DNA of 59,586 nt, counting the filler, from Dugesia japonica (lineage: Eukaryota), in NCBI GenBank assembly GCA_001938525.1. It is 5 parts of 5 records of this genome, joined end to end, with 100 filler letters (N's around TTAATTAATTAA, not from the genome) between each part and the next. Parts side by side here need not be neighbours in the genome. Positions count along the whole stretch, not along the records: positions 1 to 18,850 come from MQRL01547875.1; 4 more parts are not named here. One strand, given 5' to 3'. This document shows positions 16,849 through 18,246 of the stretch, one piece after another. The notes under the pieces are model-generated. The model ran no database searches. It was not told the origin of the DNA and saw only the letters and a list, made by a program, of their open reading frames with translations. The position numbers were made by a program, and so were the translations under genes. The stretch's first letter is position 1; every line of letters begins with the position of its first letter.

Positions 16849-18246
16849 TTATAATAAAGTTCTTTGTAACTCATTTGAGTAAAATTTCCCCAATATTTTG
16901 CTGCCGTTAAGATTTGAAATTTCAAATACCCAAAGGGAACCGTAATCAGATTTATTGTAAATTTTAGTAATAACATAAATTTTCTTTGACCATTTAAAAG
17001 TATAACCTTTAGGAAAGGTTTTTCCTATTTTAGTAATTCGTACTCGATCTCTAATTTGAAATCTTAATCTTTCTTTGTAAGGTTTATCAAGTTTTAATTT
17101 AATATTTTCTGGATTTTTTGTTGCTTGTTGAGGTGTAATGTTAATTGTTGAATGTATTGTGTTATTGTAATCATTTACAATTTCTTGTAAAAGTGTTTCA
17201 GTTATATCTTGATTTCCAACAGCAGTAAAATGTTTAAAGAGCTTGTTTTTAAATGCTCTATTAAATCTTTAAATTACAACTGCTTTACCTTAAATTTCTA
17301 TTGTATACATTTCAATATTATTTAATTTACAAAAAGCTATAAATTTTTTACTATAAAATTCTGTTCCATCATCAGTCCATAGTTTATTTGGCATCCTAAA
17401 ACTTTTAGTTAAAATCTTTTTAAATGCATCTCTTGTTGCTAGTCCACTTTTATTTGTTTGAAGTTCTACAAATGCATATGTTGTGTAAAGATCTATAACT
17501 GTTAATATTACATTTTTACCTTTTCGTTCAATTCCATGATATATTGTATCTGCAGACCAAATGTCATCTTTTTCATGTACAATTACTTTTCTAAAATGTT
17601 TAGTTTTTCTATATTCCTTATGAAGTTCTTTACTTAAATAAGTTTCATCATCAGAATCTTCTTTTTTTATTGTACTTTTTTTAAATGGATCTTTTCTAGT
17701 TCCCCCTTTACCAATAACAATTTTACCTTTAATTGCTAATTTTACAAGAGCTCTTTGAAATTTTTCTGTTAATGTAGGATTTTCAATATTATTCAAATCA
17801 TGTATTAAATTTACATCTGCAATATGTCGATCTCTAATATTTTCTGAATTATAAGCAATGTCATGTTTTAAAGCTGCTGCATCAACATTATTAATTGGTT
17901 CTTCACCAGGATTTGGATTATTATTTTCATCTAGTCTAATATCTAATCTAGTTCCAGGTCCAGTGTAATTATGTTTAAACAAATGTTTTTCACCAGGATA
18001 CTTTTCTGTAGTAATTGGTTTTAATAATGTTGATATAACTGTTGAATTTTGTAGATCGCCACCGGTTTGTTTCGAGGTAAAAGATTTTAAATCTCCACCA
18101 GATTGTTTTGAGGTAAAAGCTTTTACTTTTGAATTTTGTAAGTCACCACCTTTAACTTTATTAATACAAAAATCTAAATGTTTTGATTTATTCTTCTTTA
18201 AAATTATTTTACCACAATCTTCACATATAAAGTTTGTAGATGTCAT
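16849..18246 (-). pseudogene. Zn-finger / parvovirus-type PLA2 / retroviral-type integrase fusion
   Basis: CEDC..H..C; three GGDL repeats; HNYTGPG..DAAALKHDIAY; then WSADT, LTVID, KLWTDDGTEF. The frame continues past TAA 17290 and TAA 17269 (GKAVVI*RFNR, YNNTIHSTI, DRVRI) to a stop at 16849. Confidence 0.92.

Follow-up and report, generated by a model that had tools for sequence, protein, structure and literature searches.

A phospholipase A2-integrase fusion conserved among Maverick/Polinton elements, found through a decayed copy in Dugesia japonica

Introduction

How do animal Mavericks load their integrase into the particle, and how does the particle then cross the endosome? Virions of these elements have not been observed, as stated in the excerpted text of a recent preprint (bioRxiv 10.64898/2026.06.19.733378). 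We approach the question from one locus in a stretch of 59,586 nucleotides of Dugesia japonica (assembly GCA_001938525.1; hereafter the window), where a parvovirus-type phospholipase A2 (PLA2) and an integrase share a reading frame. PLA2 is known in Maverick-type elements, and the parts of the papers describing it that we cite have it as a separate gene (Yutin 2013, 2015; Geisler 2018; Starrett 2021). An earlier note on the locus had proposed that the frame encodes a polyprotein, cut at Gly-Gly sites by the protease of the element, that would bring both enzymes into the virion. A conserved precursor of this kind yields predictions that can be tested: which cuts are made, which N-termini the mature proteins have, and a 1:1 ratio of PLA2 to integrase in the fused lineages.

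Results

A PLA2-integrase frame in the window

On the minus strand of the window, one frame runs from an ATG at 18246 to a stop at 16849 (16849..18246, 466 codons), is colinear with 44 aligned relatives and holds all the motifs that the earlier note had placed in it. From the N-terminus, these are a Zn-finger-like segment of the form C-x2-C-x12-H-x3-C (CEDC..H..C, 18166..18225); three GGDL repeats (18052..18156, with GGDL at 18150, 18099 and 18063) in a linker predicted to be disordered and containing candidate GG↓D protease sites, where the arrow marks the cut; the PLA2 domain (17713..17994; H128-D129, Y132 and D144) with its YTGPG loop at 17967-17953 and DAAALKHDIAY at 17883-17851; the junction KGKIVIGKGG (17701..17730), which has the form K-x3-G-K-G-G, ends the last PLA2 helix and is a candidate GX↓G or GG↓X site; and an rve integrase (16852..17631) with an N-terminal ELHK motif, a core containing D233 and D292 and a C-terminal beta domain, identified by PF00665 and by fold matches.

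The description of this frame as a single ORF does not hold for the window copy. Two in-frame TAA stops that the earlier note passes over, at codon 319 (17290..17292) and codon 326 (17269..17271), interrupt the integrase core past the second catalytic Asp, leaving an open frame of 318 aa. Stop-codon reassignment was considered and is unlikely, with two TAA in 465 codons, none in a neighbouring 558-codon ORF and DNA of about 20% GC. The window copy is dead: it cannot make a whole integrase, the most it could give is PLA2 and a truncated integrase, and as a fossil it has value only as a pointer to its family. The stretch from PLA2 to integrase carries neither a stop nor a frameshift.

Profile searches of the separate domains, run on the first 318 codons, placed PLA2 (PF08398, E 1.1e-8, 35.7 bits against a curated cut-off of 23.9) and rve (PF00665, E 7.2e-11, 42.7 bits against 32.6) above their Pfam cut-offs; the Zn-finger matches of the window copy fell below (E 0.035 and 0.072). 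The model of the PLA2 domain has a pLDDT of 83.6, and its best solved match is rice PLA2 (2wg7; Z 7.3, rmsd 3.5, 88 residues aligned), a middling score that is nevertheless the top of the list, with bee-venom PLA2 at Z 5.1. The domain also matches VP1 regions of densoviruses and parvoviruses (E about 1e-3) and keeps the hallmarks of the parvovirus type, namely the calcium loop, the His-Asp pair, the Tyr, the second Asp and the PLA2 fold. Its assignment to the parvovirus/adintovirus type was thereby upheld, and a phospholipase function is predicted from sequence and model. In the full model the integrase fold matches the integrases of foamy virus, RSV, MELD-virus and mavirus; a PDB sequence search gave weak integrase matches only. 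The pTM of 0.49 is consistent with loosely tethered domains. The pLDDT falls below 50 at residues 34-38, 43-69 and 181-197, which flank both glycine sites, and the Zn-finger segment is modelled confidently.

The frame lies in a decayed Maverick/Polinton

Genes around the frame were assigned by tblastn with genes of intact loci and by Pfam. The element that they make up is, judging by gene content, a decayed Maverick/Polinton with an Alpha-type PLA2. On the minus strand, the fusion gene is flanked by the C-terminal remnant of a double-jelly-roll major capsid gene (18247..18798; tblastn to the capsid protein of locus L007, E 6e-41; PF21738 weak) and by an A32-like packaging ATPase that runs into an assembly gap (15915..16580; PF04665, E 5.7e-9). 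The stop of the capsid remnant directly abuts the fusion ATG (TAAATG, window 18244-18249), and TAA or AAA stands just before the ATG in 30 of 49 PLA2-bearing ORFs of the loci. The plus strand carries a protein-primed DNA polymerase B that is broken into several pieces and has a fragmentary N-terminus (6783..8804; PF03175; tblastn E 2e-44), a pX-like core protein in which GG occurs once and GxG twice (8895..9287; the pX-like and core genes together occupy 8895-10144), a penton (minor capsid) gene that a stop and a gap break up (10200..11045; tblastn E 3e-16), and an ORF of 122 aa for an adenain-type (clan CE) cysteine protease (11084..11452). The last confirms that the adenain invoked in the earlier note is present in the same element: His63, Asp74, Gln97 and Cys104 are in place, and a profile of this ORF and four relatives matches adenovirus proteinase (1avp, E 7.5e-4) and ASFV pS273R (E 0.014). 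The hallmarks of Mavericks/Polintons found here are thus protein-primed PolB, rve integrase, A32 ATPase and adenain-type protease, with capsid and penton as remnants.

No Chromo match at E<=0.1 was found by Pfam in 16852-17268, the frame ends where the frames of close relatives end, and weak Chromo matches were seen in relatives L002 and L036. A C-terminal chromodomain has been called distinctive of the adintovirus integrase in the text excerpted from Buck et al., 2024 (PMC11071296); because the window integrase is without one, we do not count the element among the adintoviruses sensu stricto.

Terminal repeats could not be assigned to the element, which lies in a stretch with assembly gaps. 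Two inverted stretches at about 3397-4805 and 22664-26017, 67-71% identical, are possibly old terminal repeats around both integrase-bearing segments. The other such segment belongs to a second Polinton-like fragment in the opposite orientation (window 19290-22418), with an A32-like ATPase (20214-20825) and a short basic ORF (20887-21258) that contains a GG motif. The fragment also has an rve integrase remnant (21570-22211), upstream of which no PLA2 was detected. Between the protease and the ATPase of the first element lies an unbroken 558-codon ORF (11822-13498) with three internal repeat units and no Pfam match above cut-off; it may encode a fibre or an accessory protein.

The fusion is common, not universal, among relatives

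PLA2 and rve Pfam domains occur in one protein in 64 of 107 homologues. At the level of loci, 44 of 82 have both domains in one stop-free frame and 15 have both in separate frames, the remainder having PLA2 only (12) or integrase only (11), with many short contigs. The same fusion that the earlier note had seen in one copy is therefore found in many relatives, although both searches took the fusion as seed, which over-samples fused forms. A less biased check used a PLA2-only profile, its seeds still mostly fused or overlapping loci, against representatives at 50% identity. Among the best 150 matches, about 31 continue into integrase-like sequence (some judged by a short motif only), 55 have short tails, 18 have other long tails and one has a -1 tail; 35 are without the end motif and 10 without HDxxY. 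The PLA2-integrase fusion is common, not universal.

Long fused loci have capsid, penton, ATPase and protease genes around them. Catalytic residues are kept in the fused proteins: H128, Y132, D144 and D233 in all 64, D129 and D292 in 63 of 64, and the third acidic motif of the integrase in 63. A quick integrase tree of 84 rows puts the window on a long branch (1.29) among fused relatives with a support of 91, and in-frame fusion predominates in large, well-supported clades that include the neighbours of the window. A stop and start between PLA2 and integrase, which would separate the two genes, is absent from these in-frame clades, but many other relatives do carry the two in different frames or as separate genes. 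In L062, L065 and L066, for instance, PLA2 stops at most a few residues from its GAG motif and an integrase of a different type follows with its own start codon, a third, unfused architecture. In viral contigs, the single-protein query retrieved no relatives and an alignment query two loci, later searches there returning only L002; the search of genome contigs retrieved two integrase-only scraps.

Glycine motifs mark both borders of PLA2

Across the 64 fused relatives, GG or GxG starts in at least six proteins at three columns only: position 62 ahead of PLA2, the GPG calcium loop, and position 179 at the junction with the integrase. The GG at position 62 is found in 56 of 64. At position 179, GG↓X or GX↓G is likewise found in 56 of 64, split into 44 with GX↓G and 12 with GG↓X, and eight have neither; the window junction reads GK↓G and then GG. 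The Gly-Gly sites of the earlier note are accordingly conserved on the upstream side, but at the junction GX↓G has mostly taken the place of a strict GG. The first junction Gly is invariant across 44 aligned relatives and, in the model, ends a helix spanning 159-179. GG and GxG are scarce in the other ORFs checked, with the exception of the pX-like core protein. By motif, both PLA2 borders match the specificity reported in the excerpted literature for related virion proteases of the mavirus and adenovirus type, though at GX↓G the adenovirus P4 position is mostly Lys (38/64), not M, I or L. The 11 residues following the upstream GG have a mean amphipathic moment of 0.45 against 0.28 for shuffles (n=44).

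GG appears to compensate for GxG at the junction (Fisher p 0.0008), an association that seems to rest on one clade: seven of the eight GG-only proteins fall in a single clade with a support of 99, and the eighth is absent from the tree. The end motif is also wider than the fusion. K-x3-G-x-G ends 98 of 120 stand-alone PLA2 proteins among the matches listed, and GxG is present in the PLA2 genes of L062, L065 and L066 that end there and have a separate integrase, so that it is not fusion-specific. The linker from the motif to ELH is between 3 and 177 residues long and has no conserved interface.

The sequence ahead of the upstream GG is variable. In the window, the three GGDL repeats differ in codons only synonymously within GGDL, and the last repeat is the conserved GG. 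Among 63 relatives, 51 have one GGDL, two have two and ten have none; the triple repeat, noted earlier as part of the architecture, is peculiar to the window copy. The Zn finger proved to be an optional module, present in 11 of 64 fused relatives and mostly C2H2, with DUF5679 in its place in some others. We rejected both the repeats and the finger as essential parts, the former being local and the latter present in 11/64.

The GG-PLA2-GxG cassette was also seen joined to other partners (P0298, P0288, P0294 and P0265), among them a pX-like core protein with a C2H2-like finger behind it (P0298). This suggests that GG-PLA2-GxG is a portable processed module.

A probable virion precursor and the alternatives to it

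The observations on which a functional reading can be built are the shared frame, its conservation, the retained catalytic residues, the border motifs and a protease gene in the element. That the fusion is translated as one protein is strongly implied. We favour, with a probability of roughly 0.58, the reading in which the fusion in active relatives is a virion precursor in which the adenain-type protease would cut GG↓D on the upstream side of PLA2 and GX↓G (or GG↓X) on the downstream side. The precursor would have the layout [optional Zn module]-GG↓PLA2-GX↓G-integrase and would be packaged through its PLA2/core-protein part, bringing integrase into the particle 1:1. Maturation would take off the variable N-terminal Zn module and expose on PLA2 a moderately amphipathic helix, a predicted aid in breaching the endosome; cleavage would also free the integrase, already in the particle, to travel with the genome. 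For cleavage, packaging and endosome escape, we argue by analogy with mavirus, adenovirus and parvovirus.

An accident of decay or misassembly confined to the window copy would explain a shared frame without any function, and this copy is indeed decayed, with a split polymerase, stops, a branch of 1.29 and assembly gaps nearby. However, other sources provide dozens of independent cases of the same join in proteins and loci, for which reason we read the fusion as no accident of decay; in addition, host contigs from two runs cover the junction region with no insertion or deletion listed. The conserved homologues refute this explanation, and we give it hardly any credence. A better case can be made for a junction that stays uncut, with PLA2 being the handle by which the integrase is packaged or targeted to a membrane, the junction Gly acting as a helix cap, and processing limited to the upstream GG or absent. 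The invariance of the first Gly at the end of helix 159-179, the loss of the second in 8 of 64, the departure of P4 from the adenovirus rule and linkers as short as three residues would all fit, and the excerpted text of Born et al., 2018 (PMC6048507) notes GXG sites that are left uncut. Yet a helix cap has no need of a second Gly, which stands at +1 or +2 in 56 of 64; a linker of 3 to 177 residues without a conserved interface and a pTM of 0.49 also speak against this reading; and the same text reports a separate virion protein of a related virus cut near a potential GK↓G. We consider an uncut junction unlikely, while keeping it in serious view.

The border motifs may instead have been inherited from a processed PLA2 core protein, the integrase being co-translated or made from an internal start, and the fusion a tolerated by-product of adjacency with no packaging role. 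The frequency of K-x3-G-x-G at the ends of stand-alone PLA2 proteins speaks for this, as do the separate genes with their own ATG in L062, L065 and L066 and a Met ahead of the first Asp in two of the eight loci described below with integrase in the -1 frame. Against it, in-frame fusion dominates large, well-supported clades, the neighbours of the window among them; no Met is conserved from the junction to the first catalytic Asp in the aligned relatives; and six of those eight loci have none there. A by-product of adjacency seems to us distinctly improbable, and cleavage at both borders of PLA2 remains our preferred reading of the fusion.

Integrase in the -1 frame

Scoring of the junction in the 82 loci gave 35 with integrase in frame, eight at -1 and one at +1, with 14 lacking a scored integrase start and 24 unscored. 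An A-run of at least 7 is present in the linker of 7/8 '-1' loci versus 4/35 in-frame loci. A Met before the first catalytic Asp is absent in six of the eight and present in two, and where it is absent the integrase frame is open for 237-300 codons. Against programmed recoding, an in-register slippery heptamer lies within the overlap in only four of the eight, and folds downstream of the junctions are weak, at 0 to -10.6 kcal/mol. The tails of 98 stand-alone PLA2 proteins include 17 that are a -1 reading of the integrase ELHKP and four that are a +1 reading, against shuffle expectations of 0.10 and 0.02; these tails come largely from one clade, and a single one is left at 50% clustering. Fused and -1 forms are interspersed in the tree, with seven changes. 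In one clade, A-runs of 9 and 12 go with the in-frame form, a run of 8 with -1 and a run of 10 with +1, the pattern expected of replication slippage. L001 and L079 were rejected as evidence of recoding, the frame change of L001 lying past the A-runs and L079 having no overlap.

The '-1' loci are possibly a Gag-Pol-like, recoded route to the same fusion, or else slippage mutations; on these sequence features, we view programmed recoding as a tentative explanation that is somewhat less probable than its negation. A broader proposal would be that in a large Maverick/Polinton branch the integrase is carried Gag-Pol-style at the C-terminus of a PLA2 virion precursor, in frame or through programmed -1 recoding at an A-run just past GxG, and released by adenain, with several switches between forms that adjust how much entry enzyme is made per integrase. 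We regard this as doubtful in its entirety. The -1 overlaps imply that gene callers may place the start of many Maverick integrases at a Met within the catalytic core and so truncate them.

Relation to known systems

In retroviral Gag-Pol and in IS3 OrfAB, a DDE integrase or transposase forms the C-terminal portion of a fusion, in some cases reached by a -1 shift at an A-rich site, and the retroviral integrase is released from the fusion by the viral protease. We propose, by analogy, that packaging through fusion followed by cleavage is Gag-Pol logic assembled from different parts. The likeness is in working at most, as the fusion partner and the protease class are others here and the virus is a dsDNA virus.

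The PLA2 of the parvovirus VP1 unique region (PF08398) has the same calcium loop, His-Asp motif and fold, but is tethered to a capsid protein where that of the window is tethered to an integrase; the spacer from loop to His-Asp is longer in the window PLA2. The Alpha-class adintoviruses, or group 2 Maverick-Polintons, have PLA2X and rve integrase genes and share the set of pPolB, capsid, penton, ATPase, adenain, PLA2 and integrase (Starrett et al., 2021, PMC8502044). Their PLA2 is of the same parvovirus type and was proposed to be a membrane-active virion protein; in the excerpted text and one map row of that paper, however, PLA2X and integrase are separate genes, in contrast to the shared frame of the window family. 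Mavirus has a clan CE protease that cuts GG↓X and GX↓G, the specificity we propose for the window family, and its virions contain integrase (Born et al., 2018, PMC6048507). According to the same excerpts, its predicted alpha/beta hydrolase MV13 is a virion protein recovered as two pieces on either side of a potential GK↓G; unlike the fused proteins of the window family, MV13, which is no PLA2 of the parvovirus type, and the integrase MV02 are encoded by genes of their own. The adomavirus core protein occurs in virions as smaller forms that the authors, in the text excerpted, read as adenain cleavage (10.1101/341131). Possible -1 shifts are mentioned in the excerpts of Buck et al., 2024 (PMC11071296) for penton and hexon-adenain only. 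Neither a fusion of PLA2 with integrase nor an overlap of the two turned up in the partial texts of the literature searched; figure-only supplements, bioRxiv supplements and Repbase may contain such annotation. The fusion is a real, conserved architecture within a known virus group and is apparently undescribed.

Other copies in the host and the rest of the window

From two sequencing runs of the host species, 14,529 and 13,346 contigs aligned to the stretch; most are less than 95% alike, and the family therefore has many diverged copies in the host. The length of the GGDL repeat varies among them. Of the RNA runs, one gave 80 reads, none of them at least 95% identical to the window copy, mostly over PLA2 and with first mates in both directions, and the other gave one read; no RNA read covered the bin at 17594-17664 just past the junction. 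The RNA reads derive from other copies at low level and have no bearing on the junction.

Elsewhere in the window, an isolated fragment of a major capsid gene lies at 48705-48905; over 68 residues it is 62% identical to the capsid protein of L007. On the minus strand, 35132-38915 contains pieces of an LTR retrotransposon, recognized by eye, which include gag with a zinc knuckle, reverse transcriptase, RNase H and integrase. LTR-retrotransposon remnants and an intron-split kinase-like gene suggest that the host genome is that of an AT-rich animal. Exon-like ORFs at 53150-56439, also on the minus strand, resemble pyruvate dehydrogenase kinase and are what we take to be a probable host gene.
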